A DNA stretch of 64,000 bases from Candidatus Iainarchaeum sp. GTDB lineage: Archaea > Iainarchaeota > Iainarchaeia > Iainarchaeales > DTGL01. Both the position numbers and the translations under genes were made by a program. Positions 26,964 to 45,675 of the stretch are shown in pieces; the first letter of the stretch is position 1, and each line of letters opens with the position of its first letter. Below the pieces are notes generated by a model that worked only from the letters and a program-made list of their open reading frames with translations, was not told the DNA's origin and searched no databases. The stretch covers positions 139,116-203,115 of the forward strand of contig JAOAJX010000001.1 in assembly GCA_026413945.1 (NCBI GenBank), written 5' to 3'.

Positions 26964-27572
26964 CTAAAAAATTATTCCATAATGCTTTAGGCCTTTTTTT
27001 AAAGAAACCAAATCCTTGAAAACTATTGCTTTCATTCCAATCTTTTTTGCAGCAATCACATTTTCTTTAAGGTCATCAACCAAAATTATTTCCTTTGTTT
27101 TTACACCTAAAACTCGAAGCATTTTAACAAATATCTTTTTTTCTGGCTTTGCACATCTAAGCTCGCATGAAAAAAAGGCGTAGTCAAATAGTTTCATAAA
27201 TTTCTTTTCTTTAAGATATTCAACATCCGGCGAGCTTGCATTTGATAGTATTGCAAGTTTGTATCCAGCTTTTTTAATAGCCTTCACAACTTCGATGACT
27301 TCTTTTTTCTCTTTGTAAGCTTTTTTTAAATAATCTTTCCAAACCTTTCTCGACTTTGCTTTAGCACCGACCTTTTTTAAAAGCTCTGAAATAAGATCTT
27401 TTTCCTTGATTAGGCCCTTCATCCATTTAAGTTCCATTTTTTTGTATGCCTCAACTACTTTTTCTTTTTGTCTCGTGTTTAACCCAAAATCCTTCGCAAA
27501 AAATTTTAGCCTTTTTTTGCTCGGACGCTCTATAAGCACACCACCAATATCAAATACAACAACTTTAATCAA
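26964..27572 (-). CDS. HAD-superfamily phosphatase
   Basis: FDIGGV, LSN, KP, VDD...N. Confidence 0.9.
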   Translation of the reverse strand: MIKVVVFDIGGVLIERPSKKRLKFFAKDFGLNTRQKEKVVEAYKKMELKWMKGLIKEKDLISELLKKVGAKAKSRKVWKDYLKKAYKEKKEVIEVVKAIKKAGYKLAILSNASSPDVEYLKEKKFMKLFDYAFFSCELRCAKPEKKIFVKMLRVLGVKTKEIILVDDLKENVIAAKKIGMKAIVFKDLVSLKKGLKHYGIIF

Positions 27573-27904
27573 AAAATCACGCTCTTTAAATCAAGATTCC
27601 AAAAAATCCGGCTCCGCCTCAATTTTCTTAGAGAAAAAAGCCACATAAAGAAGATAAGAAGCTATTTTTAGCATTTCTTCAATAGAAAAGCCTACTTTCA
27701 AAATAAACCACAAATTATGGCCAAAAGCATTCAGTCTTTTGAGCAAAAAGAATGATTCAGGCATTTAAATATTTGAACGAATAATAATTAAAAAAGCACA
27801 TTCCAAAGCTACCTAAAATAAATATTCGCTTTTTGACGAAATAAACATAGCCAAAAAGCGTAACCTTTTTAATTTTGTTTGGGCAATATGTGTTATGTGG
27901 TTTA

Positions 27905-29173
27905 ATGGCTTCAAACATAAGCGGCTTTTACAAGATGAGCCAAGAAGAGCGCCTTGAAGTTTTAAAGCAAAATTGTAAAATCTCAGATGAAGAACTCCAT
28001 TTGCTTAAAGAGCTTAAACCAATGGATTTCAAAACAGCCGACATAATGATCGAGAACGTTGTTGGTGTCTTTGGGCTTCCTTTGGGGATAGCAACCAACT
28101 TTGTGGTAAATGGAAAGGACTACTTGATTCCTATGGCAATTGAAGAAAGCAGTGTGGTTGCGGCCGCAAGCAAAGCTGCGAAAATTGCAAGGCTTAGCGG
28201 TGGTTTTAAAGCTGATGCCAACAAACAGCATATGATCGGCCAGATACAAATTATGGTCAAAGGCAAAAAAACAAACTCAGTCATTAAAAAAATTAGAGCC
28301 AACAAAAAAGCTCTTCTTGAAAAAGCAAACGCTTGTGACAAGGTTCTTGTTTCGTTTGGTGGTGGTGCCAAAGATTTAATTATCAGGCATTTTGAGGGCT
28401 TTATTGTATTACATTTGATTGTTGATGTTCGGGATGCAATGGGTGCAAATGCCATCAACACAATGTGCGAAACCATTGCACCAGAAATTGAAAAAATTGC
28501 AAACTGTAGGACAGGAATCAAAATAATTTCAAACCTTGCTGTTTACCGGTTAGCGAAGGCTAAAGCAGTATTTACAAAGCATTTACTTGAAGAAGAGTCT
28601 GGCAAAGGCATAGTTGACGAGATTATTAAAGCTTGGAAGTTTGCATTGGCTGATCCTTACAGAGCAGTAACTCACAATAAAGGAATAATGAATGGTATAG
28701 ATGCTATAGCAATAGCTACAGGCAATGATTTCAGGGCATTAGAAGCTGGCGCTCACGGGTATGCTTGTATTAAAGGTAATTATAAACCACTTACGAAATA
28801 TTATAAAGATAAAAATGGAAACCTTATCGGAGAAATAACCATGCCTCTACAGTTTGGAATTGTTGGTGGTTCTACTAGGGTAAATCCAATGGCTAAATTG
28901 TGCCTTAATATACTTGGAGTTAAAAGTGCACAAGAATTAGCAGAGGTTGCAGCATCGGTTGGGCTCGCACAAAACTTTGCTGCACTTTACGCATTATCCA
29001 CTAAAGGAATTCAATATGGTCACATGAAACTTCATGCAAAAAATATAGCTGTGCAAGCCGGAGCCAAAAACTACGAGATTGATGCTGTTGCTGAAGCCAT
29101 GATTTCTTCAAAATCTATTAATGAAGCATCTGCAAAAGAAATACTCAAAAAAATCAGGAGAGATACTTTATGA
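27905..29173 (+). CDS. HMG-CoA reductase, class II
   Basis: ENVVG, EESSVVAA, DAMGAN, THNKGIMNG, GHMKLH. Confidence 0.95.
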   Translation: MASNISGFYKMSQEERLEVLKQNCKISDEELHLLKELKPMDFKTADIMIENVVGVFGLPLGIATNFVVNGKDYLIPMAIEESSVVAAASKAAKIARLSGGFKADANKQHMIGQIQIMVKGKKTNSVIKKIRANKKALLEKANACDKVLVSFGGGAKDLIIRHFEGFIVLHLIVDVRDAMGANAINTMCETIAPEIEKIANCRTGIKIISNLAVYRLAKAKAVFTKHLLEEESGKGIVDEIIKAWKFALADPYRAVTHNKGIMNGIDAIAIATGNDFRALEAGAHGYACIKGNYKPLTKYYKDKNGNLIGEITMPLQFGIVGGSTRVNPMAKLCLNILGVKSAQELAEVAASVGLAQNFAALYALSTKGIQYGHMKLHAKNIAVQAGAKNYEIDAVAEAMISSKSINEASAKEILKKIRRDTL

Positions 29174-30201
29174 CTGCAGGCATAGTTGGCTATGGCATCT
29201 ATGTACCAAAGTTAAGGATAAAAGTAAGCGAAATAGAGCGAGTATGGCAAAAAAGCTCAGGTGGAATCGGTGTGAATGAAAAAGCAGTGGCTTCTATAGA
29301 TGAAGATGCTTGCACACTTGCAGTAGAAGCGGCAAGACGAGGCATAGAAGACTTTTCCATAGACCCAAAAAGAATAAATGCTATCTATGTTGGCTCCGAA
29401 AGCCATCCTTATGCAGTAAATCCTACATCAAGCATTGTTGGTGATGCTCTCGGAACAACAAATAAATATTATGCTGTTGATATGGAATTTGCCTGTAAAG
29501 CTGGAACTGCTGGAATGCAAGTTTGCTATGCACTAAAAAAGGCAAGAATGATCGATATCGGCCTAGCTATAGGCTCTGATACTGCACAAAGCAAACCAAA
29601 CGATGCACTTGAATTTACAGCAGCAAGCGGGGCTGCTGCATTTTTCATAGGAGATAAGAAAGATGAAGTTATAGCAGAAATTGAGAGCACATGTAGTTAT
29701 ACAAGTGATATGCCAGATTTTTGGCGTAGACCTAAAGCGGAATTTCCAGAGCACACCGGAAGGTTTACAGCAGAAGCCTATTTTAAGCACGTCATAGGTG
29801 CCGCCAAAATGATCCTTGAAGAAACAGGTTATAGGGCGGACGAATTTGACTATGCTGTTTTTCATCAACCAAACGGAAAGTTTCCCTTAAAAGCCGCGAG
29901 TATCCTTGGTATAGAAACAAAAAAGGTGGAGCAAGGCCTTATAACACCACTAATAGGAAACACTTATAGTGGATCTACCATGATAGGGTTAGCCAGCATA
30001 CTTGATATCGCAAAACCAAAGCAAAAAATACTTGCTGTAAGCTATGGCAGTGGTGCGGGAAGTGATGCCTTTATAATAAATACAACTGATAACATCTCAG
30101 ATAGGAGAGCAAAGGTGCCTGTGCTAGAAATGATTAAGGAAAAAGAGTATATTGATTATGCACTTTATTTAAGACATAGACGCAAAATAAAAAGCTTGTA
30201 A
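29170..30201 (+). CDS. HMG-CoA synthase, archaeal type
   Basis: GSESHPYAV, EFACKAGT, FHQPNGKFP, SYGSGAGSD. Confidence 0.95.
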   Translation: MTAGIVGYGIYVPKLRIKVSEIERVWQKSSGGIGVNEKAVASIDEDACTLAVEAARRGIEDFSIDPKRINAIYVGSESHPYAVNPTSSIVGDALGTTNKYYAVDMEFACKAGTAGMQVCYALKKARMIDIGLAIGSDTAQSKPNDALEFTAASGAAAFFIGDKKDEVIAEIESTCSYTSDMPDFWRRPKAEFPEHTGRFTAEAYFKHVIGAAKMILEETGYRADEFDYAVFHQPNGKFPLKAASILGIETKKVEQGLITPLIGNTYSGSTMIGLASILDIAKPKQKILAVSYGSGAGSDAFIINTTDNISDRRAKVPVLEMIKEKEYIDYALYLRHRRKIKSL

Positions 30202-31371
30202 GTGATTTTTATGGTTGTAATTATTGGTGCAGGTGTTACAAAATTTGACGAGCACTGGGAACTTTCTTTCAGGGAGCTTATACTTGAAGCAGCCCTAAAA
30301 GCTATAGAAAGTTCAGGCCTACATGGTGAGAAGATTGAAGCAATTTATGGTGGCTGTATGGCATCAGGTAGATTTATAGGCCAAGAACACATAGGTGCGC
30401 TTATTGCAGACCAACTTGGCTTAAATCCAATTCCAAGCACCAGAGTTGAAGCAGCCTGCGCATCTGGTGGTGTTGCTTTGAGGACTGCATACCTTTCAAT
30501 TAAAAGCGGCGCTCATGATATCGTTGCTGTCGGCGGAGTCGAAAAGATGACTGAGCTTAGCACAGAAGGTGTTAGTTTTGCTTTAGGTGGTGCGGGTGAC
30601 CAGGAAATAGAATTATTCCATGGTGCAACCTTTCCTAGCCTCTATGCTTTGCTCGCCAGGGCTCATATGCAAGATTTTGGTACTACCGAGGAACAAATGG
30701 CTGCAGTCGCAGTAAAAAACCACGCCAACGCGATTTTTAATCCAAATGCACAATTTCACCGCCAAATAGCAATAGAGGATGTTATGGGATCTGGATATGT
30801 TGCAGAACCAATAAAAGTTTTGGACTGCTCACCGATTACTGATGGTGCGGCCGCTTTAATACTTTGTTCAAATGAAAAAGCTGAAGAACTGGGTCTCAAA
30901 GGCGTAGAAATAATTGCCTCTGAGCAAGCTTCAGACTCATTGGCAATAACAGGTAGAAAAAGTTTAACTGAGCTAAAAGCCACAAGGATGGCCGCTCAAA
31001 GAGCTTACCAAAAAACAGGGCTTAGTCCAAAAGATATTGATTTTGCCGAGGTTCATGATTGTTTCACAATTGCAGAGATTCTTGCAATTGAAGACCTTGG
31101 TTTTTTTGAGAAAGGGAAAGGTGGCATTGCCACAGAAAAAGGTGAGACCTCACTTAAAGGAAAAATACCTATTAATCCAAGCGGAGGTCTTAAGGGTAAA
31201 GGCCACCCCGTTGGCGCCACTGGAGTTGCACAGGCAGCTGAGGCATATTATCAGCTAATGGAGTTAGCAGGAGAGCGGCAAGTTAAAAAGGCCAAAACAT
31301 GTTTAACGCATAATGTTGGCGGCTCAGGTGCAACAGCCATTGTTACTATTTATAGGAGATTTAAGGGGTGA
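30202..31371 (+). CDS. Acetoacetyl-CoA thiolase
   Basis: EAACASGG, VKNH, EVHDCF, GHPVGATG, HNVGG. Confidence 0.95.
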   Translation: MIFMVVIIGAGVTKFDEHWELSFRELILEAALKAIESSGLHGEKIEAIYGGCMASGRFIGQEHIGALIADQLGLNPIPSTRVEAACASGGVALRTAYLSIKSGAHDIVAVGGVEKMTELSTEGVSFALGGAGDQEIELFHGATFPSLYALLARAHMQDFGTTEEQMAAVAVKNHANAIFNPNAQFHRQIAIEDVMGSGYVAEPIKVLDCSPITDGAAALILCSNEKAEELGLKGVEIIASEQASDSLAITGRKSLTELKATRMAAQRAYQKTGLSPKDIDFAEVHDCFTIAEILAIEDLGFFEKGKGGIATEKGETSLKGKIPINPSGGLKGKGHPVGATGVAQAAEAYYQLMELAGERQVKKAKTCLTHNVGGSGATAIVTIYRRFKG

Positions 31372-31375
31372 CTCC

Positions 31376-31777
31376 ATGCACAACATTGCGCCTTTAAACT
31401 GGAGAAAATTTCCAGAGAGATATCTCCTAAAGGGAAATTACTGTGAAGTATGTAAACAAGCCTTTTTTCCGCCAAGACCAATATGTCCAAACTGCAGGCG
31501 AAAAGGAAAATTGATACAAATGGAGATGCCAAGACAAGGAAAGATCTTGAGCTATACAAAGGTTCATGTGCCTCCAGAGGGATTCAAAAATGAGGCACCT
31601 TACTATTTGGCAGTTATCGAGCTTGAAAATAAAGCCAAGGTGTTAAGCCAAATTGTTGATTCAGAACAAGAAAAAATAAAGATTGGCGCCAAAGTAAAAA
31701 AAGTTTTCAGACAGATTGGCGAACCAGATAAATACGGTACTATAACTTACGGTTATAAATTTAAAGTAATTCAATAA
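31376..31777 (+). CDS. DUF35 Zn-ribbon/OB-fold scaffold of the thiolase-HMGS complex
   Basis: CxxC...PPR..CxxC, OB fold, YGYKF end; start at ATG 31376 after GGGGTGA. Confidence 0.92.
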   Translation: MHNIAPLNWRKFPERYLLKGNYCEVCKQAFFPPRPICPNCRRKGKLIQMEMPRQGKILSYTKVHVPPEGFKNEAPYYLAVIELENKAKVLSQIVDSEQEKIKIGAKVKKVFRQIGEPDKYGTITYGYKFKVIQ

Positions 31778-31795
31778 TATGGTGTTGGTGATTAG

Positions 31796-32791
31796 TTGGA
31801 TAGTGCTAAAGCTAGCGCTCCAGGCAATCTTTTTCTGACTGGCGAGCACGCAGTAGTTTATGGGAAACCAGCAATAATTGCTGCTGTTAATAAAAGAGCT
31901 TATTGCACTTCATTCAAATCAAAAGGCAATACCATTTCTGTTATAAGCAGAGAATTTGGTATTGCAAAAGCTAAAATTAAGGAAAATAATATTGTTAACC
32001 ATGAAGGAAAAAATGAGCTCTTTGTTTTCTTTGATTTGGTTGAAATGCTTATGCATAAGCATGATATTAGAGACGGCCTTGAGATAAGAATTGAATCAGA
32101 TGTGCCAGTAGAGTCCGGCCTTAGCTCAAGCACAGCAACTTTAAGCGCAGCATTGTATTCACTTAATCTTCTTTTTGATCTTAGAATAAAAAAAGAAAAC
32201 TTTTTTGATTATCTATACCCTCTACAAGTCAAGATACATGGTGGCAAAGCATCTGGTAGTGAAATTTTCTCAAGTTCAATTGGTGGTTATAACAAAATTC
32301 AAAAGATAGATTGTGAAGGAAAAACAAAAATAAACTCCAAAGAGCTAGGAAAACACAGTTTTAGCATAGTGATAGGTAATACAAAAGTAAGAGCCCCCAC
32401 AGCGCTTACTGTTGGCATGCACGTACCATCACTTATGAGAAGGTTTCCTAATATGGTTGAAAAGGAATTCGAAAAGATAGAATCTATATGTGAAAAGATT
32501 GAAAAAGCACTTGAGGCTGAAGATATTTACAGAATTGGCAAACTCATAAACAAAAATCAAAAAATACTATCAAAACTCGGTCTTAGTCATCCAAAGATTG
32601 ATGACTGTATTAACGAAGCACTCCATGCTGGTGCTTTGGGTGCAAAACTTAGTGGCGGTGGCTGGGGCGGAGTGATGTTTGCACTTGCAAAAAGAGGGGA
32701 AGAAGAAAAAATAGCTAAAGCCATAGAGTCCACAGGAGCTGAAGCAATAATCACCACAATAGGCGGTGAAGGAGTAAAAGCATGCGATTAA
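31796..32791 (+). CDS. mvk: Mevalonate kinase
   Basis: GEHAVVYG, SGLSSS, AKLSGGG.GG GHMP motifs; operon context. Confidence 0.9.
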   Translation: MDSAKASAPGNLFLTGEHAVVYGKPAIIAAVNKRAYCTSFKSKGNTISVISREFGIAKAKIKENNIVNHEGKNELFVFFDLVEMLMHKHDIRDGLEIRIESDVPVESGLSSSTATLSAALYSLNLLFDLRIKKENFFDYLYPLQVKIHGGKASGSEIFSSSIGGYNKIQKIDCEGKTKINSKELGKHSFSIVIGNTKVRAPTALTVGMHVPSLMRRFPNMVEKEFEKIESICEKIEKALEAEDIYRIGKLINKNQKILSKLGLSHPKIDDCINEALHAGALGAKLSGGGWGGVMFALAKRGEEEKIAKAIESTGAEAIITTIGGEGVKACD

Positions 32792-33330
32792 TAGTTGCAT
32801 CGTGTGGTGCAAGCGGTATTAATTACGTATCATTACTAATTAAAGAACTTAAAAAGAGAAAAGTAGAGATGCATCTTATATTTTCTGAATGGGCAAAGAA
32901 AGTAGCAAATTTTGAAGAGCAACAATTAACTTATAAAGGAATAAAAATTTACAATAACGACGAATTAGATGCGAGCATCTCTAGCACAAGCTTTCCAGTT
33001 GATGCAATGGTTATATTGCCAGCAAGCATAAAAACTGCAAGCGATATTGCCAATGCACACACTGATAACCTTATTGCAAGATGCGCAGATAATATGCTTA
33101 GACAAAGAAAAAAGCTCATCCTTTGCATAAGAGAAACTCCTTTGAGCACACCTGCACTTAAAAATCTTTACAAAATTTCTCTTTATGGCGGCATCGTTTT
33201 TCCTCTTTCCCCAGCTTTTTATTCCAAGCCAAAAAGCATTTCTGATATCGAGGCTTTTATAGTTGGAAAGATCTTAGACCTTCTTTCAATCGAGAATGAA
33301 CTCTACAAGAGGTGGAACTATGGACTTTAG
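32782..33330 (+). CDS. ubiX: UbiX flavin prenyltransferase
   Basis: GASG, NLIARCAD, RETPL, PAFY..P. Confidence 0.9.
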   Translation: MRLIVASCGASGINYVSLLIKELKKRKVEMHLIFSEWAKKVANFEEQQLTYKGIKIYNNDELDASISSTSFPVDAMVILPASIKTASDIANAHTDNLIARCADNMLRQRKKLILCIRETPLSTPALKNLYKISLYGGIVFPLSPAFYSKPKSISDIEAFIVGKILDLLSIENELYKRWNYGL

Positions 33331-34681
33331 AAGTTTTATTCAGAAGCTCGATAAAAGCAAGGAACTGATAAAAGTAAGTAAACCCGTATCTAAGAGATTT
33401 GAAGCAGCAGCAATACTTAAAGCTCTTGATGGCAAACCAGTACTGTTTGAAAACATAAAAGAATCTCAATTCAAGGTTGCTGGGAATGTGTTTTCCTCGA
33501 AACATTACATCGCAGATTACTTTGGTTGCGATGAAAGAGATTTAATAAAAATAATGGTTAATGCGTTGAACAAACCAAAAGAATTGAATATTATAAAGAA
33601 AAGCCCATGTCAAGATATAATTGTTGAAGAAAAAGATGTTGATTTGGACAAATTGCCAATACTAAGGCATACGAAAATTGACGGTGGTAACTACATAACT
33701 TCTGGTGTCTTCATTGCAAAAGACAAAGAATTAGGCATGAACGCTTCTTTTCATCGATGTATGCAATTAGATAAAAAAACATTCTCCGTTAGGGTTTGTG
33801 AACGTAATCTCTATGAGTTTTTACAAAGAGCATCCGGTGAACTTAATGTTGCAGTATGTATTGGCAATCCTGCTAGCGTCTTGTTAGCTGGAGCTACAAG
33901 CCCCCCAATTGGACAGTTCGAGTTTGAGATTGCAAGTGCACTCGAGAGTTTTGGGGTTGTTAAGGCACAATTTGCAGATGTATATGTTCCTTCAAGTTCT
34001 GAATTTATAATAGAAGGCACACTTACAATGAATGAGCTTGCTAACGAAGGCATGTTTTTAGATCTTACTGGTACAAGGGACTTTGTTAGAAAACAACCAA
34101 TTCTAAAGGTTAAGAGAATAACCCATAGAAAAAATGCGATATGGCATGCGTTATTACCGGGTGGTAACGAGCATGGGCTGCTTATGGGAATGCCGAGAGA
34201 ACCAACAATATTTTCAGAAGTTAGCAAAGTTGCAAAATGTTTAAATGTAAACATAACTCAAGGAGGCTGTTCATGGCTTCATGCTGTAGTTCAAGTGCAG
34301 AAAGAAAGCGATGAACAAATAAAAAGAGTGATTGAAGCTGCATTTAAAGGCCATAGCTCCTTAAAGCATGTTTTTGTTGTTGATGCTGACATCGATGCTA
34401 ATAATATGCAAGAAGTTGAATGGGCCTTTGCAACAAGATTGCAAGGCGACAAGCAAATACACATATTCCCAAAACAAAAAGGTTCTAGCTTGGATCCAAG
34501 TGCTGAGCACCCAAGCAGAATAACATGTAAAGTTGGCTTTGACTTAACTATCCCTATGGGCAGAGATAAAGCAGATTTTACAAAGGTAAACTATGAAAGA
34601 ATTGAGTTGGATAAATATTTGGTGAAAAAAGATGAAGCTAAGCAAAGAAGAAAAAGAGTATCTGGAAGGAAAACACGGTAA
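33320..34681 (+). CDS. UbiD-family decarboxylase, probable anhydromevalonate phosphate decarboxylase
   Basis: NASFHR, EG.F.DLTG, GGCSWLHAVV, VEWAFATR, GSSLDPS; MVA operon context. Confidence 0.88.
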   Translation: MDFRSFIQKLDKSKELIKVSKPVSKRFEAAAILKALDGKPVLFENIKESQFKVAGNVFSSKHYIADYFGCDERDLIKIMVNALNKPKELNIIKKSPCQDIIVEEKDVDLDKLPILRHTKIDGGNYITSGVFIAKDKELGMNASFHRCMQLDKKTFSVRVCERNLYEFLQRASGELNVAVCIGNPASVLLAGATSPPIGQFEFEIASALESFGVVKAQFADVYVPSSSEFIIEGTLTMNELANEGMFLDLTGTRDFVRKQPILKVKRITHRKNAIWHALLPGGNEHGLLMGMPREPTIFSEVSKVAKCLNVNITQGGCSWLHAVVQVQKESDEQIKRVIEAAFKGHSSLKHVFVVDADIDANNMQEVEWAFATRLQGDKQIHIFPKQKGSSLDPSAEHPSRITCKVGFDLTIPMGRDKADFTKVNYERIELDKYLVKKDEAKQRRKRVSGRKTR

Positions 34682-35807
34682 TGCAGCAAAAAAAGCAATG
34701 GAAATTCTTGTAGCACTCGGAAAAATTTACTCAGCAAAGAGATTAATTACTGTAGACAGTGTCCAGATTTCTGGTGTAAGTTATCACACTATTGGTGATG
34801 CAGGCTTAGAATTGTTGGAAGACCTTGCTAAAGATGGCAAAATAAAAGTTCCTCTAACAACTTTAAATCCAGCTGGCATAGATATTGAAAATTGGCAATG
34901 CTTGGGCATAGATAAAAATTTTGCTGAAAAGCAACAACGCATTTTAAGCGCTTTCAAGAAGATTGGGGTTATTGTGAGTTGCACTTGTACACCTTACTTA
35001 ATAGGCAATATTCCAAAGTACGGCTCACATATTGCATGGAGTGAAAGCAGTGCCGTATGTTTTGCAAACTCGATTATTGGTGCAAGAACAAATCGCGAAA
35101 GCGGTTTATCGAGCCTAGCAAGTGCTATTACTGGAAAAACACCTGATTATGGCCTTCATATAGAAAAGAACCGCAAACCAAAATATCTTGTAGAAGTCAA
35201 AGCAAACCTTACTGATATAACTGATTTTGGCGCACTTGGTAAAATTATCGGTGAAAAAATCGGAGGTGAAATACCTCTGATAAGAGGAATTTCTGATGCT
35301 GATCTTGATGAATTGAAAAGTCTTTGTGCCTCAATTGCGACTTTTGGTGGTACTGCACTTTTTCATATAAAAGATTTGACCCCCGAAAAAGTAAAAGCAC
35401 CTAAGAAAAAATTATACATAACATCAGCCGATATTGAAAAAGCGAAGAACTCATTTTTTGATACTAATGAATATGACTTCATTGCAATAGGTTGTCCACA
35501 TGCTTCCATAACAGAAATCCAGCAGATTGCCTCAGCACTTGATGGCAAAATGGTAAAAAAAGAATTTTGGGTGTTCTGTGCAAGACCAGTAAAGAAAATT
35601 TCCGATCTTATGGGTTACACCGAGGTTATTGAAAAGGCTGGTGCCAGATTTGCTTGCGACACTTGTATGGCTGTTGCCCCGCTTAAAGGTAGATTTAATG
35701 GCATGATTACAAATTCAGCAAAAGCATGCTTCTATGGGCGCGGTTCAAACAATTTTAAAGTAAGACTTGCTACACTTGAAGAATGCATAAAGGTGGCTTT
35801 AAATTGA
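34632..35807 (+). CDS. Aconitase X large subunit, probable phosphomevalonate dehydratase
   Basis: SGVSY, CTCTPY, AWSESSA, GARTNRE, GCPH, DTC, TNSAK. Confidence 0.92.
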   Translation: MKLSKEEKEYLEGKHGNAAKKAMEILVALGKIYSAKRLITVDSVQISGVSYHTIGDAGLELLEDLAKDGKIKVPLTTLNPAGIDIENWQCLGIDKNFAEKQQRILSAFKKIGVIVSCTCTPYLIGNIPKYGSHIAWSESSAVCFANSIIGARTNRESGLSSLASAITGKTPDYGLHIEKNRKPKYLVEVKANLTDITDFGALGKIIGEKIGGEIPLIRGISDADLDELKSLCASIATFGGTALFHIKDLTPEKVKAPKKKLYITSADIEKAKNSFFDTNEYDFIAIGCPHASITEIQQIASALDGKMVKKEFWVFCARPVKKISDLMGYTEVIEKAGARFACDTCMAVAPLKGRFNGMITNSAKACFYGRGSNNFKVRLATLEECIKVALN

Positions 35808-36190
35808 TTCTTAAAGGTAGAAAAATTTCTTCAGGAAAGGCTGAAGGCGAATGCCTTTTCAGCGAACAACCAATATCATTTTTTGGGGGAATTGATCCTG
35901 ATACTGGAATTATAATTGAAAAGGGACACCCGCTTGAAGGAGTGAACATAGCAGGAAAAATACTTATTTTCCCTCATGGCAAGGGTTCTACTGTTGGCAG
36001 TTATACAATATACCGCTTAAAAAAGAACAAAAAAGCACCTGCAGCAATGATTCTTAAAGAATGCGAAACAATAGTTGCAATAGGTGCAATAATTTCAGAA
36101 ATCCCTTGTATTGATAAAATAAAAATAGAAAAACTAAATAAAATTACTATGCTGAAAGTTGATGCAGATAAAGCAGTGGTGATTTTTTGA
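35804..36190 (+). CDS. Aconitase X swiveling (small) subunit, DUF126
   Basis: SFFGGIDP.TG, GKGSTVGSY; TTG start overlapping upstream stop. Confidence 0.92.
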   Translation: MILKGRKISSGKAEGECLFSEQPISFFGGIDPDTGIIIEKGHPLEGVNIAGKILIFPHGKGSTVGSYTIYRLKKNKKAPAAMILKECETIVAIGAIISEIPCIDKIKIEKLNKITMLKVDADKAVVIF

Positions 36191-36975
36191 AAGAACTCGT
36201 TTTAATTAAACTCGGCGGCTCTCTAATAACTGACAAACGTAAAAAGGAGAAAGCTAGGCTAAATTTGATTGCCTCATTAGCACATGAAATAAAACCATTC
36301 ATTGGGAAAAAAAGACTCATTGTTGCCCACGGTGGTGGAAGCTTTCCTCATTATCCCGCAAAAGAGTACAGGGTCAATGAAGGCATTTTAAATAAAAACA
36401 GCCTGAAGGGCTTTTGCCTCACCCATGATGCCGCAGCAAGACTAAATCGCATTGTTGTAGGCGAGTTTCTAAAAGCAGGCATAAATGCAATAAGCATGCA
36501 GCCAAGCTCTTTCATGTTCTGCAAAAATGGAAAAATAATTCAAAGCAATCTTTGCGCAATAGAAGAAGCTTTGCAGCATAACATATTGCCAGTGCCGTAT
36601 GGCGATGCTGTGTTTGACACTGAAAAGGGCATAACAATAATATCAACAGAACAGATACTTTCACACTTAGCTTTAAAACTCAAAGCTAAAAGGATAATCG
36701 TTGCAGGCATAGTTAATGGAGTTTATACATCAGATCCATTGCTAAGTCCTTGTGCAAAGTTAATACCTAAAATCACTGCAAAGAATTTTCCAAATATAAG
36801 AAATATGCTTTCTGGCTCTCACGGCGTAGATGTTACTGGCGGAATGCTTTCAAAAGTTGAAGACCTCGTTGCTCTCTCAAACAAGGGAATTAGGGCCCAA
36901 ATAATTGGCGCAGAGCAAAAAGGCAATTTGAAAAAGGCAATTTTAGGAAAAAGAATCGGCACTATAATTGGCTAA
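36187..36975 (+). CDS. ipk: Isopentenyl phosphate kinase
   Basis: KLGGSLITDK, HGGGSF.H, GDAV, DVTGGM..K. Confidence 0.93.
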   Translation: MKELVLIKLGGSLITDKRKKEKARLNLIASLAHEIKPFIGKKRLIVAHGGGSFPHYPAKEYRVNEGILNKNSLKGFCLTHDAAARLNRIVVGEFLKAGINAISMQPSSFMFCKNGKIIQSNLCAIEEALQHNILPVPYGDAVFDTEKGITIISTEQILSHLALKLKAKRIIVAGIVNGVYTSDPLLSPCAKLIPKITAKNFPNIRNMLSGSHGVDVTGGMLSKVEDLVALSNKGIRAQIIGAEQKGNLKKAILGKRIGTIIG

Positions 36976-37026
36976 GAGTTAAACACCATTAAAAACCATT
37001 TTTAACTTTTTGGTGAATAATAGTTT

Positions 37027-37601
37027 ATGCCTTTACCGAAAAACAGGTTAAGACAACCGAAAACTTCAAGAGCAGTGGTAATAAAGAGAGAATTAAAACA
37101 AATGACTAGTGAGCAAATCGCAAGTCTGATTTCCGCTGCCGCAAAACAACCACTACCGGTAAGAGTTTTGTTGGCAAAAGGCCTAAATACACGAAGACTC
37201 AAGGCAAGAGGATTTACCGCAAAAAATTGGCAGAATTAGGGTATAAGGCCAGCGAATTAAGACTACTCGGATATTCTGCAATTGACTTAAAACGTGCTGG
37301 ATTTAGTGTATATGACATAATACATGCCGGATTTACTTTAGATGAATTAAGGCGGCTAGGCAGCAAATTTGCCCCAGGTGGGCCAAAAAAAGTAGGATAT
37401 ACTGCAGGTGAATTATTTGCTGCTGGACATAGCTTAGAAGAATTAAGAAGATTCGGATATACTGCAATCGACTTAAGAGCTGCTGGATTTGATGTGGATG
37501 AATTAGTACATGCTGGATATACTGCGCCCGAATTAATACTTGCCGGTTTTTCCCAAGTACAAGTAAATGCTGCTTTTAGCAGAAAAGCCAAAGCCAAATA
37601 A
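37027..37601 (+). CDS. Decapeptide-repeat protein (G-[FY]-[ST]-x-x-[ED]-L-x-x-x) split by a -1 frameshift at 37221-37227
   Basis: ORFs 37027-37239 and 37227-37601 join into an unbroken repeat register (..GFTAKK/LAELGYKASEL..) with one extra A; GGTGA SD before 37027. Confidence 0.7.
37255..37560 (+). repeat. Coding 30/60-bp periodic repeats with a 186-bp internal duplication
   Basis: GGATATACTGC at 37395, 37455, 37515; ELRLLGYSAIDLKRAGF vs ELRRFGYTAIDLRAAGF. Confidence 0.85.
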
Positions 37602-37681
37602 GACTGTTAAATAGTACTAGTTCACGAAACCCAGCAAAACAATTATATACTACAAACTGCTTTCTTTATACTGATGTTTTA

Positions 37682-37810
37682 ATGTGTGCAGATTCCAGTT
37701 TAACGAATAAAGAAAAGCAAGAATGTGAAGAAAGCGCAAAAAGTTTTGGGGCATCTTTAGGGAAACTATTTCTTGCAATGGGTTTGGAAGAGTTGAAGAA
37801 AGAACCTTAA
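37682..37810 (+). CDS. Possible small protein (42 aa)
   Basis: MCADSSLTNKEKQECEESAKSFGASLGKLFLAMGLEELKKEP fills the gap before fni; purine-rich like real genes. Confidence 0.35.
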   Translation: MCADSSLTNKEKQECEESAKSFGASLGKLFLAMGLEELKKEP

Positions 37811-37888
37811 AGATTAATTGAAAGCCTCTAAGTGAATAAAGAAAATAAAGAATAACCTTTTAAATAAAGTTGCAATCGTATCTTTTTT

Positions 37889-38893
37889 ATGTCAATCAGA
37901 GATAGAAAGCGCGAGCACATTGAGATTTCACTCACACAAAATGTAAACTTCCGCTCAACTACAACATGGCTTGAGAAAGTGCTTTTGGAATATTCTGCTT
38001 TGCCAGAAATAGACCTTGATGACGTTTGTCTTGAGACTGATTTTTTGGGTAAAAAACTAAAAGCACCACTTATGGTTAGCGGCATGGTTGGAGGTATAGA
38101 AGAAGCGAAGCAGATAAATAGAGATATTGCGAAAGCATGTGAATCTCTTGGTATTGCGTTTGGTGTTGGTTCTCAAAGAGCAATGCTTGAAAATCCACAG
38201 CTCAAGCATACTTATTTTGTGAGAGATGTCGCACCAAATATTTTTGTTGCTGGTAATTTAGGAGTAACACAACTAAAGGATTATTCATTGGAACAAATCG
38301 AATATGCCTTAGAATCGATTGGTGCTGATGCCTTGGCAATACACATAAATGCTGCACAGGAATCAATACAACCAGAGGGTACGCCAAGATTTAAAGGGTG
38401 TCTTAAAAAGATTGATGAGGTTTCTAAAAAGCTAAGTAAGCCAGTCTATGTAAAAGAAGTTGGTCATGGGGTCTCTTTTCGAGTAGCGCAAGAACTAGCA
38501 AAAACAAACATAAAAGCAATCGATGTACAAGGTGCCGGTGGCACTTCATGGACTGCAATAGAATTTATTAGAAATAAGTCAGCTTTCGGTGAAACATTTT
38601 GGGATTTTGGCATACCAACTGCAAGCAGCGTGGCAGAGTGCAGAAAAGCCTTCAAAGGAATCATAATTGCTAGTGGTGGCATACGCTCAGGCCTCGATGC
38701 TGTAAAATCGTTTGTGCTTGGAGCAAACATGGTTGCTATCGCAAAACCAGTCCTTGAAGCCCAAGCCAAAGGTGGTCACAAAGAGGTTGAAAATTACCTT
38801 AGCAAAATAATTCACGAAATAAAAGTTGCCCTTTTCCTGATTGGGGCAAAAAGCCCTAAAGAAGCAGTTGGGCGTGGCAGATTACAACCCTAG
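37889..38893 (+). CDS. fni: Type 2 isopentenyl-diphosphate delta-isomerase
   Basis: RKREHI, GVGSQR, QESIQPEG, KEVG.G, GAGGTSW, ASGGIR. Confidence 0.95.
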   Translation: MSIRDRKREHIEISLTQNVNFRSTTTWLEKVLLEYSALPEIDLDDVCLETDFLGKKLKAPLMVSGMVGGIEEAKQINRDIAKACESLGIAFGVGSQRAMLENPQLKHTYFVRDVAPNIFVAGNLGVTQLKDYSLEQIEYALESIGADALAIHINAAQESIQPEGTPRFKGCLKKIDEVSKKLSKPVYVKEVGHGVSFRVAQELAKTNIKAIDVQGAGGTSWTAIEFIRNKSAFGETFWDFGIPTASSVAECRKAFKGIIIASGGIRSGLDAVKSFVLGANMVAIAKPVLEAQAKGGHKEVENYLSKIIHEIKVALFLIGAKSPKEAVGRGRLQP

Positions 38894-38918: not shown

Positions 38919-39716
38919 TTATGTTTTAATAATTTCAAGCCCAAAATCTTCTAGCATAGATATTACTCTTGCCTTCTCTGTTGAAAGGCCTTTTTTTTCA
39001 ATTACAAAGGCCTTGACAGTTTCCACTGTAGACTTTATTGCCTTTTCAATAGATTCTTTAGTCAGTTTTGCTAAATAATGCTTAGGGCACATGTGCGAGA
39101 AAGCAAGTTCCGTTTCTAATGCCATTTTCGTGAAGTGCTGGTTGTAATGTAAGCCCCCGAACCCAAGCACTGCCTTGGACTTAATATTATAATCAGCATC
39201 AACAATTGTTTTTGCAACAACATTTGCTGCTTTTGTATCAGTCCATTGTGCAATGCTTGAGCCAATCTCAATATAAAGTGCAGGTTTTGTTAAATACGGG
39301 CCATGGTGTGTTGCCTCATAAACAACATCATAATCTATACATAACTTCTTCTTTAACTCATTAAGATAACATATGTATGCTTTCATAACCGCAGAGCTTG
39401 TTGGCACTAACTCAAAATCTTTGCCACCAAAATGCGCTTTTGCCCAATTTCCTATTGGATGCACAGTAAGCGTTGGTCTTTTAGATTCCGAAGAATGCTT
39501 CGAAGCAAAGACAAACAATTTACAATTAATTTTATCTACATAATCAGCAAATATCTGATCAGAATTTATAAAATATAGTTTCATGTTTTTTTCATTGCTT
39601 TGGTAAACCCCATTTCCATCAAAGTTCTCTTCACATTCTTCAAAACCATTGCTAAAAAGCTCTTTTGCAATATTCATTCCAGCAGGATCTAGTTTAGATA
39701 CTATTATGGCAATCAT
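38919..39716 (-). CDS. dtdA: D-aminoacyl-tRNA deacylase (archaeal DTD2/DtdA)
   Basis: S..DPAG.NI, SKH.S, TVH..GN, EATHHGP, EIGS, GGLHY; start moved to MIAIIVS. Confidence 0.9.
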   Translation of the reverse strand: MIAIIVSKLDPAGMNIAKELFSNGFEECEENFDGNGVYQSNEKNMKLYFINSDQIFADYVDKINCKLFVFASKHSSESKRPTLTVHPIGNWAKAHFGGKDFELVPTSSAVMKAYICYLNELKKKLCIDYDVVYEATHHGPYLTKPALYIEIGSSIAQWTDTKAANVVAKTIVDADYNIKSKAVLGFGGLHYNQHFTKMALETELAFSHMCPKHYLAKLTKESIEKAIKSTVETVKAFVIEKKGLSTEKARVISMLEDFGLEIIKT

Positions 39717-39771
39717 AAAAAGCGATTGTGCATTTATGGTTAAAAGCTTAACATCTGATACTTTGTTAAGT

Positions 39772-40539
39772 ATGGATACTTTCAGGCTTTTTGTTGTTGC
39801 ATTTTTGGCAATTGTAATGATTGCTTTGTTATTACAGATTTTTGGCTTGTTTGAACCAACTTTGGATCTTGAGAAAGAAATCAAAGAACTGATTCGAATT
39901 GCAGAATCTCAACCAGGTAAATACTTCTCAAAGATGCTCCCTCTGCAAGGCACATTGATTGCAGATATTTTTGAGAATGAACAAAGATCACTGATTTTTC
40001 TTTGTAACAGTCCTTCTTTGTGCTGTGAAATGGCGCAAAAGTGTGGGAAAAATCTTGAATGGAATAATATAAAAACCTCAAGGTTCATAACCTCAAAACA
40101 AAAGAAGCAGGCATATGTATCAGTAAGATGTAGATTCCAGTCATTAACTATTTGCAAAGTTTACTTTGGGCAAGAGCCCGCGCAAATTACAATCGAAAGC
40201 TTTGGCATTGATGTTAACCAGAACACTGCTTTCGCTGGTGAAAATATATATATTAACTACTCAATAAAAAACACAGGCAAAACATCGCTTATTGCAACTT
40301 CCGTGGCTAAACTTTATGCCTCTCATACAGAGCTTTCAGGCGAAGTTTGGCTATTTATAAAGGACTTCAAAGGAAAAGATTTTGCGCTTCTCAGCAATGA
40401 GTCTGCCAATGATTCCATCAATTTCTCAATAACAGCTCCAGGAAAATATAAAATAGAGCTATTTGTCTATGAAAGTAATGATGAGACAAATTTCGACTCA
40501 AAGAGCTTTGAATTAATGGTTTTTGAGAAAAAGCACTAA
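39772..40539 (+). CDS. Membrane-anchored protein with pilin-like N-terminal helix and C-terminal Ig/CARDB-like domain
   Basis: MDTFRLFVVAFLAIVMIALL; Cys cluster; GENIYINYSIKNTG...PGKYKIEL. Confidence 0.6.
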   Translation: MDTFRLFVVAFLAIVMIALLLQIFGLFEPTLDLEKEIKELIRIAESQPGKYFSKMLPLQGTLIADIFENEQRSLIFLCNSPSLCCEMAQKCGKNLEWNNIKTSRFITSKQKKQAYVSVRCRFQSLTICKVYFGQEPAQITIESFGIDVNQNTAFAGENIYINYSIKNTGKTSLIATSVAKLYASHTELSGEVWLFIKDFKGKDFALLSNESANDSINFSITAPGKYKIELFVYESNDETNFDSKSFELMVFEKKH

Positions 40540-44484: not shown

Positions 44485-45675
44485 ATGGATAAATATGATG
44501 TCATTGTAATAGGTGGAAGCGTTGCAGGTCTAAGAGCCGCAGAACAGCTCGCGAATAGAGGCTTAAATGTACTCTGTTTGGATAAAAAACAAGAAATTGG
44601 AGTTCCAAAGCAATGTGGCGAAGGTATAAGCTTAGGGCATCTTCAAAAGCTCGGAATCAAGCCAGATAGGCGTTGGGCATCACAAAAAATAAATGGTGCA
44701 ATTCTTTATGCACCAAACGGTAGTGCAGTTGAGATTGATTTTGGCAAAACCATGGGCTTTGTACTAGAGCGCAAAGCATTTGAAAAGCATCTAGCCAAAA
44801 AAGCAGCAAAAGCAGGTGCAACTGTAAAGGTAAAAAGCAACGTAACTGAAGTAAAGAGAACTGAAGGCGGAGTCATTGTTAGTGTATGTGACCTTTTCGC
44901 AAACACATACTTTGCTAAAGCAATTTTCGCATGTGACGGGCCACAAAGCGTTATAGCAAACAAGATGGGGTTGCCAATAAGCATAAAGCCAGAGGACTTA
45001 GACTCCGGCATTCAATATGAGATGGCTGGCATTGAATTCGAAAAAGAAAAATTTATTCATCTATGGTTTGGGAACGATATTGCGCCTAGAGGATATGTTT
45101 GGCTATTTCCAAAGGGTAAGCAGCATGCTAACGTAGGCATTGGCATAGGTGCACACATCAGAGGTTCAGCAAAAGAATACTTGGACAAATGGATTGAGGT
45201 CAGACCGGAGATAAAGAAAGGCTCTATAATTGAAGTCAATTCTGGTGTGATACCTGTTGGTGGGCTCCTTAAGAAAATGACTGCAGACAATCTTATAGTT
45301 ATAGGTGATGCCGCTCATCAAGTTAACCCAATACATGGCGGCGGCATGGGCATAGCAATGGAGGCAGCAGATATTGCCACTAGCGTTTTCGAAAAAGCAT
45401 TCCAAAAAAATGATTTTTCAGATGCAACTTTTGACGAATACAACAGAATATGGTGGGAACGCTGTGGGAATAAGTTAATGCGACTGGTTCAAATAAGGAA
45501 AATGATGGAATCTCTTAATGATAATGACTTTAATACAATTGCTGAAGCTTTTACTGGTGAGGAGATACTGACAATACAGAGTGGAGACTTCGCGAAGATT
45601 AGAGCAATAATACTCAAGAAACTTATTAGCAAGCCAGCACTTTTAAAAGTGATGCTGAAATATCTCTCAGCATAG
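44485..45675 (+). CDS. Geranylgeranyl reductase (DGGGPL reductase family)
   Basis: Rossmann N-terminus, P.QCGEG, GYVWLFPKG, GDAAHQVNP..GGG. Confidence 0.9.
   Translation: MDKYDVIVIGGSVAGLRAAEQLANRGLNVLCLDKKQEIGVPKQCGEGISLGHLQKLGIKPDRRWASQKINGAILYAPNGSAVEIDFGKTMGFVLERKAFEKHLAKKAAKAGATVKVKSNVTEVKRTEGGVIVSVCDLFANTYFAKAIFACDGPQSVIANKMGLPISIKPEDLDSGIQYEMAGIEFEKEKFIHLWFGNDIAPRGYVWLFPKGKQHANVGIGIGAHIRGSAKEYLDKWIEVRPEIKKGSIIEVNSGVIPVGGLLKKMTADNLIVIGDAAHQVNPIHGGGMGIAMEAADIATSVFEKAFQKNDFSDATFDEYNRIWWERCGNKLMRLVQIRKMMESLNDNDFNTIAEAFTGEEILTIQSGDFAKIRAIILKKLISKPALLKVMLKYLSA

Follow-up and report, generated by a model that had tools for sequence, protein, structure and literature searches.

Gene content of the locus

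The locus described here raises the question of whether a small DPANN archaeon can make its own isoprenoid chains, and whether the operon that would serve it is unusual. It lies in a window of 64,000 nucleotides (the whole stretch of DNA analysed) from an Iainarchaeota (Diapherotrites, DPANN) assembly of 0.95 Mb (948,649 bases). The source organism is described as a small archaeon from a hot spring. Gene identities were assigned through the list of open reading frames (ORFs) and Pfam and NCBIfam profiles; scores are given in bits against the curated cut-off.

25462-26955, minus strand: ThyX (Pfam, NCBIfam), divergent upstream neighbour
26964-27572, minus strand: HAD hydrolase (Pfam, NCBIfam), divergent upstream neighbour
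27862..27876, plus strand: BRE/TATA-like promoter element AACCTTTTTAATTTT, upstream of the operon, read from the sequence
27905..29173 (ORF from 27875), plus strand: class II (NAD(P)H) HMG-CoA reductase, HMGR; TIGR00532, 440.8 against 259.95
29170..30201, plus strand: archaeal HMG-CoA synthase, HMGS; NF003274, 498.6 against 244; 4-nt overlap with the HMGR stop
30202..31371, plus strand: acetoacetyl-CoA thiolase; NF004720, 546.5 against 420
31313..31777, plus strand: DUF35 protein (zinc-ribbon and OB-fold), predicted scaffold subunit of the thiolase/HMGS complex; PF01796, PF12172
31796..32791, plus strand: mevalonate kinase, MVK, of a xenologous DPANN/CPR-type lineage; TIGR00549, 182.4 against 163
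32782..33330, plus strand: UbiX flavin prenyltransferase, putative prFMN supplier for the decarboxylase; NF004685, 192.1 against 188; PF02441
33296..34681, plus strand: UbiD-family decarboxylase, putative anhydromevalonate phosphate decarboxylase (AMPD); TIGR00148, 361 against 244.85
34632..35807, plus strand: aconitase X (AcnX) large subunit (phosphomevalonate dehydratase, type II AcnX); PF04412, 492.7 bits
35783..36190, plus strand: AcnX small (swivel) subunit; PF01989, 118.6; NF003046, 172.7 against 163
36187..36975, plus strand: isopentenyl phosphate kinase, IPK; NF040647, 218.1 against 120
37027..37601, plus strand: decapeptide-repeat ORF(s), outside the pathway; PF25296, 104.7 bits for 37227-37601
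37854..37868, plus strand: BRE/TATA-like element read from the sequence, lying 21-35 nt before the start of IDI-2
37889..38893, plus strand: type 2 (FMN) isopentenyl-diphosphate isomerase, IDI-2; TIGR02151, 378.7 against 281.3
38919..39884, minus strand: DTD2, archaeal D-aminoacyl-tRNA deacylase; PF04414, 211.4; convergent downstream neighbour

The ten genes between 27905 and 36975 are all on the plus strand and tightly coupled: at their junctions, overlaps reach 59 nt and gaps at most 18 nt. Their order, 5' to 3', is class II HMGR, HMGS, thiolase, DUF35, MVK, UbiX, UbiD, AcnX large, AcnX small and IPK; IDI-2 follows downstream. The eleven genes named in the original prediction are thus present, with the strand and order it gave. 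Its assignment to the archaeal AcnX/UbiD/UbiX/IPK pathway was upheld by profile matches for the whole enzyme set. Every mevalonate (MVA) gene identity exceeded its curated cut-off apart from DUF35, which has no equivalog. The MVA genes are all single-copy, with no paralogues found by tblastn in the genome, and the GC content stays even throughout the locus. We regard the locus as very probably a housekeeping operon that encodes the complete archaeal-type mevalonate pathway of this archaeon.

Upper module and proposed route

The best solved relatives of the HMGR are the class II structures 6dio (E 2e-118) and 1qax (E 1e-116), and its alignment keeps the ENV.G, EE.SVVAA, DAMGAN, NKGIMNGID, GND.RA and GHM.LHA.N blocks. 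Class II HMGR exceeded its cut-off in 30 of the 41 genomes of the order, and 17 of the 18 HMGR neighbours with an organism name are archaeal. Class I HMGR was also considered as a candidate and rejected (TIGR00533, 59.5 against a cut-off of 441.8). The chains of the thiolase/HMGS/DUF35 channelling complex (PDB 6esq/6et9) are the best solved relatives of three adjacent window genes: 6esq chain I for HMGS (E 2e-120), chain A for the thiolase (E 4e-109) and chain E ('Pfam DUF35') for DUF35 (E 1e-32). The window differs in that the order HMGS-thiolase-DUF35 stands behind HMGR, and the complex here is a predicted one. Since the DUF35 alignment begins at residue 29, its true start may lie past the thiolase stop.

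According to these assignments, three acetyl-CoA would be converted to HMG-CoA by the thiolase/HMGS/DUF35 complex, HMG-CoA to mevalonate by the class II HMGR, and mevalonate to mevalonate 5-phosphate by MVK. Two-subunit AcnX would dehydrate this product to trans-anhydromevalonate 5-phosphate, which the UbiD-family decarboxylase, using prFMN from the co-encoded UbiX, would turn into isopentenyl phosphate. IPK would then form IPP, and IDI-2 would balance IPP and DMAPP. These would feed the prenyl diphosphate synthase, GGGPS, DGGGPS-like UbiA, CarS and GGR of the same genome. The archaeal trans-anhydromevalonate 5-phosphate pathway, reportedly first described in Aeropyrum pernix and rebuilt from Methanosarcina mazei, likewise has MVK, two-subunit AcnX, UbiD with UbiX, IPK and IDI-2, and lacks PMK, DMD and PMD. 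The window differs from it in that all steps from acetyl-CoA to IPP lie in one ten-gene operon, the upper pathway and a class II HMGR included. The archaeal-type pathway is called the most universal in archaea, most DPANN included, in a section of PMC11052028.

Lower module

The UbiD protein on record starts at 33320, eight codons downstream, and has 453 aa; the host genome holds one copy. It shares 45-54% identity with the UbiD genes that immediately adjoin AcnX in 71 of 80 loci (Iainarchaeota, Micrarchaeota, Bathyarchaeia). One source gives the name 'anhydromevalonate phosphate decarboxylase' to a relative with 51% identity, and we infer that the window's UbiD is the AMPD. The AcnX large subunit, whose closest solved form is the separate-subunit 7cnr, retains the cysteines of three aligned blocks (CTPY, GCPHAS and D(T/S)C). 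The best solved relatives of IPK are the IPKs 3ll9 and 8u0k (E 1e-45).

Promoter-like boxes and the insert before IDI-2

In relatives of the family, a similar purine-rich stretch and then a T/A box stand at the same position upstream of HMGR. Given the usual form of archaeal promoters, the box at 27862..27876 probably acts as a promoter, from which the operon would be read as a single transcript. The HMGR ORF opens with a TTG at 27875, which falls within this box, so the ATG at 27905 is the likelier start. The 12-mer AACCTTTTWAAW has two sites in the whole window, upstream of IDI-2 and upstream of HMGR. The box pattern was derived from these same two sites, and its near-matches showed no enrichment; therefore, the element reads as a general promoter-like box, and a regulon signal is not supported.

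The spacing of about 0.9 kb between IPK and IDI-2 is not empty, as it holds the decapeptide-repeat ORF. The C-terminal part of ORF 37027-37239 carries the same repeat in another frame, beside a run of A, and the ORF looks split by a frameshift. No homologue was found in the loci of relatives (n = 20). There, IDI-2 comes directly after IPK or after an intervening HAD gene.

Conservation of the operon and replaced genes

The ten-gene order is identical in 15 of the 20 loci from 19 relatives of the order, and the remaining five are cut by contig ends. A GHMP kinase occupies the gap between DUF35 and UbiX in all 17 of 17 loci. Several relatives also have ThyX next to the operon; the particular HAD of the window was seen in the closest relative only. 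In most of the relatives' loci DTD2 stands at the end of the operon, which makes the locus syntenic and not an island. The novelty first claimed for the operon is therefore lost, as the same order is common in the host lineage. The view that these genes are usually dispersed is not supported either: UbiD, AcnXL and AcnXS are adjacent in the 71 of 80 loci mentioned above, and according to PMC11052028 MVA genes 'usually form gene clusters'. For Diapherotrites/DPANN, both MVA genes and class II HMGR have been published before, and PMC6107057 describes HMGR-II as numerous in DPANN.

UbiD-AcnXL-AcnXS is adjacent in 53 of 60 labelled loci of Bathyarchaeia, followed by IPK-IDI-2 in 41 of the 60, and in 9 of 9 labelled loci of Micrarchaeota. 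A class II-like HMGR adjoins some of these clusters. They differ from the window in that the bathyarchaeial ones have a prenyl synthase added and the upper genes outside, whereas in Micrarchaeota HMGS-thiolase-DUF35 is divergent from HMGR. Within this three-way comparison, only Iainarchaeota loci (5/7) have all ten genes co-directional.

Protein identities drop smoothly with kinship for the operon genes, with the exceptions of MVK and IPK. The MVK is about 30% identical to MVKs elsewhere in the order and 46-57% identical to those labelled Nanoarchaeota, Aenigmarchaeota, Nanohaloarchaeota and Patescibacteria. The MVK of the window's genus is a xenolog, kin to other DPANN/CPR kinases, that has replaced the original gene in place. 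In the window's family, IPK was perhaps also replaced in place; the deep node of its tree is weak (support 24). The original description of the operon as a mosaic thus holds for MVK and possibly IPK, but not for the class II HMGR, given its archaeal neighbours, its spread through the order and the published DPANN record.

Exchange of the lower module within the order

Among the 41 genomes examined from the order, 22 give a strong AcnX match, nine have DMD above its cut-off (PMK/DMD type), and none has both. UbiD was present in none of the five DMD-type genomes tested. Together, these distributions are what one would expect if the two types were different ways of carrying out a single step. In the DMD-type genomes, MVK, DMD and, in most, PMK stand behind the same HMGR-HMGS-thiolase-DUF35 module. 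In this, these genomes resemble the eukaryote/bacterial-type MVK-PMK-DMD of some DPANN, whereas the window itself is of the archaeal type.

On the HMGR+HMGS+thiolase tree, which is a locus tree and not a species tree, built by a quick method under a simple model with six AcnX-type genomes unplaced, six changes of module type are needed, at least five of them forced by well-supported branches. A DMD-type pair (G003/G006) is nested within the window's genus on this tree; the alternation reaches genus level. Compared with shuffles, the module label was neither clustered nor scattered significantly (for the two labels, 55 and 40 of 500 shuffles gave a value as low). The upper four genes form a constant platform in the order, behind which the lower half appears to have been repeatedly exchanged with a PMK/DMD cassette at the same spot. 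An ancestor with both cassettes, followed by differential loss, may account for the distribution instead of exchange. Parts of PMC6107057 and PMC11052028 report the MVK-PMK-DMD type in Micrarchaeota and 'several DPANN MAGs', and an excerpt of PMC12892359 describes mvaD versus ipk as differing at order level in Micrarchaeota. In the papers searched, we found no account of the two types alternating at a single conserved locus, even within one genus.

Alternative explanations and lipid assembly

The UbiX/UbiD/AcnX trio might serve another substrate (an aromatic acid or hydroxy-acid), with the lower MVA steps missing or carried out by other enzymes. The UbiD family is diverse in function, the closest solved relative (6h6x, 213 bits) is a different enzyme and not an AMPD, and in several sources close relatives go under the name '2,5-furandicarboxylate decarboxylase' or 'octaprenyl-hydroxybenzoate carboxy-lyase'. 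We consider this reading very improbable, because the trio is flanked by MVK and IPK with overlapping reading frames, UbiD-AcnXL-AcnXS keeps its adjacency in three phyla, usually with IPK, IDI-2 and a prenyl synthase after it, and AcnX and UbiD alternate with DMD as described above. Moreover, the host genome showed no other lower or decarboxylase route: MVK is its sole GHMP kinase, and there was no DMD match and no MVA paralogue. It is likewise very improbable that the cluster is an island of recent origin, or a product of faulty binning or assembly, and not a native trait. The mosaic label, the xenologous MVK, and the LAGLIDADG-type ORFs and other insertions in relatives' operons would suit such an origin. 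However, the cluster is internal to a 203-kb contig of even GC content, has ThyX and DTD2 on either side, as in relatives of many families, and shows the smooth fall of identities with kinship in all genes but MVK and IPK.

The window holds two further genes relevant to the use of the products:

17415..18479, plus strand: short-chain trans-prenyl diphosphate synthase (GGPP synthase-like); IdsA, 213.4 against 468; GGPP_syn, 191.4 against 500
44485..45675, plus strand: geranylgeranyl reductase family protein, GGR; TIGR02032, 229.7 against 158.8

GGR passed its profile as predicted. The gene predicted as a GGPP synthase is a short-chain trans-prenyl diphosphate synthase, but falls below every equivalog cut-off. 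Elsewhere in the genome, GGGPS and CarS exceeded their cut-offs, and a DGGGPS-like UbiA scored 252 bits, under the equivalog cut-off of 296. The pathway might work mainly for non-membrane isoprenoids (e.g., polyprenyl phosphate sugar carriers for glycosylation), the membrane lipids, or at least their glycerol phosphate backbone, coming from a host or the environment; this we hold to be unlikely, though less so than the two readings above. In its favour, glycerol 1-phosphate (G1P) dehydrogenase was found in 0 of the 41 genomes of the order (the best match, 45.7 bits, is AroB), the host genome has no Fe-ADH family match and no GpsA above cut-off, and the genome is small. Part of PMC12892359 places the loss of this enzyme in a common ancestor of Iainarchaeota, B1Sed10-29 and Micrarchaeota. 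Against it stand the lipid genes listed above and the retention of GGGPS in 38 of the 41 genomes, which would be hard to explain if G1P and GGPP were not supplied. We infer that the products are used in membrane lipids. The missing G1P dehydrogenase leaves the ether-lipid glycerol backbone without an identified source. The predicted capacity for the organism's own isoprenoid chains is consistent with the MVA operon and these genes, but full lipid autonomy is not supported.

In principle, the cell could make isoprenoid units and attach them itself. Its operon is an ordinary representative of an already known route, with a layout normal for the lineage; the swapping of the lower module adds modest interest beyond the known operon type.

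Gene content of the operon

ORF listing, Pfam and NCBIfam confirmed the ten-gene mevalonate cluster, together with the type 2 IPP isomerase (IDI-2) gene, that the original prediction had listed at 27.9–38.9 kb.

Mevalonate genes of the window (scores in bits versus the model cut-off, where one is given)
27905–29173, + strand: class II HMG-CoA reductase (HMGR); TIGR00532 440.8 vs 259.95; class I model TIGR00533 59.5 vs 441.8
29170–30201, + strand: archaeal HMG-CoA synthase (HMGS); NF003274 498.6 vs 244
30202–31371, + strand: thiolase; NF004720 546.5 vs 420
31313–31777, + strand: DUF35 protein; PF01796 and PF12172
31796–32791, + strand: mevalonate kinase (MVK); TIGR00549 182.4 vs 163
32782–33330, + strand: UbiX; NF004685 192.1 vs 188
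33296–34681, + strand: UbiD-family decarboxylase; TIGR00148 361 vs 244.85
34632–35807, + strand: aconitase X large subunit (AcnXL); PF04412 492.7
35783–36190, + strand: aconitase X small subunit (AcnXS); PF01989 118.6
36187–36975, + strand: isopentenyl phosphate kinase (IPK); NF040647 218.1 vs 120
37889–38893, + strand: IDI-2; TIGR02151 378.7 vs 281.3

The mevalonate genes occur in one copy each in the window's own genome (948,649 bases in 21 contigs, 92% complete), and within the ten-gene block neighbouring genes overlap by up to 59 nt or are spaced by up to 18 nt. The HMGR ORF opens with TTG 27875, which lies within a T/A-rich box; ATG 27905 is the likelier start. An Rfam scan of the window returned no match. 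The sole sequencing run containing the window DNA is labelled as a hot-springs metagenome, which is possibly the source sample.

The gene identities bore out the predicted pathway type, i.e., the archaeal-type (anhydromevalonate phosphate) mevalonate pathway. HMGR exceeded the cut-off of the class II model and fell far under that of class I. It aligned over its full length with the class II structures 6dio and 1qax, and the EE.SVVAA, NKG, GND and GHM.LH blocks, presumably the catalytic ones, were kept. The thiolase, HMGS and DUF35 genes adjoin, and the best solved relative of each is a chain of one entry (6esq/6et9), the archaeal thiolase/HMGS/DUF35 complex; the likeness seen here is one of sequences and gene adjacency. 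The aconitase X subunits (AcnX) are encoded by adjoining separate genes, as in the two-subunit (type II) form. The large subunit matched 7cnr, in which the subunits are separate, at E = 3e-105 and the more distant fused proline-dehydratase form at 7e-58, and its cysteine-containing blocks were kept in the alignment with solved relatives. The UbiX gene is located directly 5' of UbiD and scored over its cut-off. UbiD likewise exceeded its cut-off, and one source labels a 51%-identical relative anhydromevalonate phosphate decarboxylase (AMPD). The closest solved UbiD, 6h6x (213 bits), is another enzyme, so the assignment of the window UbiD as the putative AMPD rests on context. MVK and IPK scored over their cut-offs, the nearest solved relatives of IPK being IPKs, and IDI-2 exceeded its equivalog cut-off. 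PMK and a GHMP-type decarboxylase are absent, as this route predicts: the genome contains a single GHMP kinase, and TIGR01240, the GHMP-type decarboxylase model, had no match in it. At 92% completeness, this absence is not absolute. For all operon proteins, we infer the functions from homology and context.

The prediction had also placed a GGPP synthase and a geranylgeranyl reductase (GGR) in the window. Both genes are there (prenyl synthase 17415–18479; GGR 44485–45675), but the GGPP synthase-like protein scored under all equivalog cut-offs.

We weighed and rejected a role as a pathway-specific regulatory site for a 12-mer that occurs upstream of both HMGR and IDI-2. The pattern had been derived from those two sites, two matches were also obtained in 9 of 100 shuffles, and near-matches were not enriched (94 vs 118 expected). 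We treat it as a putative general BRE/TATA-like box.

IPK and IDI-2 are separated by a decapeptide-repeat ORF (37027–37601, + strand; PF25296), with a repeat also found in DotG/IcmE. The protein is split in two ORFs (37027–37239 and 37227–37601), and the repeat runs on across the frame change beside an A run. A sequencing error, a pseudogene and a genuine shift could each account for the frame change. None of 20 loci of relatives had a homologue between IPK and IDI-2.

Conservation of the layout in the order and beyond

AcnX gave a strong match in 22 of the 41 genomes of the order. From 19 of these 22, we obtained 20 AcnX loci (G017 and G022 were left out; G038 gave two loci). In tblastn searches with the window proteins, 15 loci showed all ten genes with the order and direction of the window. 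The remaining five end at contig ends, and the order is kept as far as the sequence reaches. Where tblastn with the window MVK left a gap of about 1 kb, a GHMP kinase filled it in each of 17 loci. ThyX 5' and DTD2 3' of the operon recur in the relatives' loci. A recent island or contamination was rejected because of this synteny and the even composition, the GC content being uniform across the mevalonate locus.

Beyond the order, we inspected 80 loci from a collection of species-representative genomes. UbiD, AcnXL and AcnXS were adjacent in 71 of them (by label, 7/7 Iainarchaeum, 9/9 Micrarchaeota and 53/60 Bathyarchaeia). The Bathyarchaeia showed AcnXL–AcnXS–IPK–IDI-2 in 41 of 60 loci, followed by a prenyl synthase in 38 of 60. 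The premise that these genes are usually dispersed fails for these lineages, and the ten-gene order shared within Iainarchaeales leaves the layout without the novelty ascribed to it. As a representative of a known kind of pathway, the operon is ordinary and typical of its lineage.

The conserved operon accommodates insertions. HAD-family phosphatase genes recur inside the operons of relatives, at three positions among the fetched loci:

Positions of HAD-family genes in relatives' operons
between IPK and IDI-2: L004, L005, L007, L009, L012, L014, L017
between AcnXS and IPK: L002, L006
between UbiD and AcnXL: L011

Neither the window nor its closest relative has the HAD form of about 250 residues that is conserved across the window's family. 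The HAD gene of the window (26964–27572) is unrelated to that form and runs divergently from HMGR. We rejected this gene as a conserved operon member, as it recurs only in the closest relative. It is conceivable that the operon HAD phosphatase would act on pathway phosphates. Another locus carries a 109-residue PAC_bac ORF (proteasome-assembly-chaperone-like/LpdD-like; L013:3536–3865, + strand) between UbiD and AcnXL, which the window does not have. LAGLIDADG-domain ORFs were observed in two relatives (L006:2363–3451 and L003:14363–15688), between HMGS and thiolase or between thiolase and DUF35, and L006 also has a malic enzyme gene between thiolase and DUF35.

Possible exchange of the lower pathway

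The 41 genomes of the order were classified by their lower pathway. The archaeal UbiX–UbiD–AcnX–IPK route (AcnX type) was found in 22 genomes and a DMD over the cut-off, marking the eukaryote-type PMK–DMD route (DMD type), in nine. No genome had both, and ten had neither, a class that includes some incomplete genomes. UbiD was sought in five DMD-type genomes, two of them assemblies of one or two contigs, and found in none. Around HMGR, the DMD-type loci showed the same HMGR–HMGS–thiolase–DUF35 module as the AcnX type. This upper module was followed by MVK–DMD–(Nudix or IDI-1)–PMK, by MVK–DMD or by MVK–DMD–IPK.

The window's genus includes two DMD-type genomes, G003 and G006. Their MVK and that of the window share 63% identity. 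Both genomes carry a reversed PMK–DMD pair, and they have a 79%-identical ORF 3' of DUF35 in common with one AcnX-type congener. This ORF of about 315 residues, located between DUF35 and MVK (L004:5170–6123; L119:5282–6220; 79% between two congeners), has no family match; it occurs in part of the genus and is absent from the window. A 186-residue ORF after MVK in G003 had no family and no homologue in the other loci.

A locus tree was calculated from concatenated HMGR, HMGS and thiolase with a quick method (LG+G4). Its 28 rows comprised 16 AcnX-type genomes, all nine DMD-type genomes, an additional Iainarchaeum locus and, as outgroup, two Micrarchaeota; the other six AcnX-type genomes fell outside the tree, their fetched loci missing HMGR, HMGS or thiolase. 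The tree requires six changes of the lower module, at least five of which are forced by well-supported branches. G003 and G006 were nested within the window's genus with full support.

One further genome, G016, combines a class II HMGR with an IPK at full score; it lacks AcnX as well as a DMD at full score. It contains a 402-residue GHMP-type decarboxylase-like match (125 bits), and G016 may represent a third variant of the lower pathway within the order.

Proposed replacement of single genes

The operon had been described as a mosaic headed by its class II HMGR. This description did not hold for HMGR itself. Of the 41 genomes of the order, 30 had a class II HMGR over the curated cut-off. An organism name was attached to 18 of the best 120 database relatives, and 17 of these were archaeal (Thermoplasmatota/Thermoplasmata 9, Archaeoglobaceae 3, Diapherotrites 2, 'ainarchaeum' 1, Aenigmarchaeota 1 and 'archaeon' 1), the other being a WOR-3 bacterium. 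Those outside the genus were 56–61% identical to the window HMGR. By these relationships, the window HMGR belongs to an archaeal class II clade and is not a fresh bacterial import.

The mosaic did find support at MVK and perhaps at IPK. The window MVK shares 62–76% identity within the genus versus about 30% with MVKs elsewhere in the order, which are 39–82% identical to one another irrespective of the module type. Its next database relatives (46–57%) are labelled Nanoarchaeota, Aenigmarchaeota, Nanohaloarchaeota and Patescibacteria. In a 52-row MVK tree, for which the program warned of long branches, the genus and these relatives formed a fully supported clade; the other Iainarchaeales MVKs clustered with Bathyarchaeia. 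In the IPK tree, the window's family was separated from the other Iainarchaeales and joined Bathyarchaeia and two IPKs of Micrarchaeota. A weak deep node in this tree makes a replacement of IPK in the family only suggestive.

The rest of the lipid pathway

The prediction held that the cell makes its own isoprenoid chains and proposed a genome-wide search for the ether lipid enzymes. GGGPS was found (TIGR01769, 212 vs 161.6), as in 38 of the 41 genomes of the order. One of three UbiA-family genes is DGGGPS-like and scored under the cut-off (NF009521, 252 vs 296). CarS (NF003114, 162 vs 148) and GGR (TIGR02032, 229.7 vs 158.8) were over theirs. The CarS locus (contig 17 of the window's own genome, 24334–27828; L106) is accompanied by a gene for a DUF92 integral membrane protein on the 5' side and an exosortase/archaeosortase-like gene on the 3' side.

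The glycerol-1-phosphate (G1P) dehydrogenase (EgsA/AraM, NF002022) was over the cut-off in none of the 41 genomes, the best hit (45.7 bits) being AroB. PF13685 matches in relatives were dismissed as candidates, since they are 3-dehydroquinate synthases. In the window's own genome, the Fe-ADH family models PF13685 and PF00465 had no match, GpsA reached 21 bits only, and no substitute G1P-forming enzyme was evident beside GGGPS, the DGGGPS-like gene or CarS. On paper, the cell would thus be able to make and attach isoprenoid chains, as predicted, but a G1P dehydrogenase for the backbone is missing from this gene set.

Discussion

Much of this picture agrees with the available portions of the literature. 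PMC6107057 reports mevalonate enzymes in Micrarchaeota, Aenigmarchaeota and Diapherotrites as well as HMGR-II in large numbers in DPANN, Asgard and TACK, and has a figure of gene synteny by phylum. PMC11052028 describes clusters as the usual form of the mevalonate genes and the archaeal type as the most universal, most DPANN included, with the eukaryote type in several DPANN MAGs. The pathway was found in 39.7% of Diapherotrites genomes (PMC8407392), and the anhydromevalonate route has been traced to the archaeal ancestor (PMC13473441). Iainarchaeota are possibly host-independent (PMC6349945, PMC12892359). PMC12892359 also infers that the common ancestor shared by Iainarchaeota, B1Sed10-29 and Micrarchaeota lost G1P dehydrogenase, and it assigns mvaD and ipk routes to different Micrarchaeota orders. 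The operon itself adds little, since a full isoprenoid precursor pathway in some small-genome DPANN archaea, which have no recognisable source of the G1P backbone, was already reported. Its practical value lies in its compactness: ten genes of the energy-saving archaeal pathway in a natural arrangement form a cassette that metabolic engineers could try out.

The proposed exchange of the lower module, which is the more interesting, comparative point, and the in-place replacement of MVK merit a follow-up. The accessible parts of the literature on Diapherotrites, Iainarchaeota and DPANN mevalonate contained no description of same-locus lower-module exchange in Iainarchaeota; the figures and supplements of PMC6107057, PMC11052028 and PMC12892359 may show the distribution. 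We regard the following reading as evenly balanced between right and wrong. Iainarchaeales would have a fixed platform, i.e., class II HMGR–HMGS–thiolase–DUF35 with ThyX and DTD2 flanks, behind which the lower half was exchanged at least five times between UbiX–UbiD–AcnX–IPK and PMK–DMD, even between species of the window's genus. MVK would have been replaced in place by a xenolog from a DPANN/CPR clade, and possibly IPK as well.

Near relatives with two lower pathways behind one upper module bear on the evolution of the mevalonate pathway variants, and they advise caution in reading phylogeny or host dependence from the pathway type. If the exchange is real, it would show from a natural case that the two lower routes can be plugged in interchangeably as modules, and the pathway type would be no stable lineage marker in DPANN.
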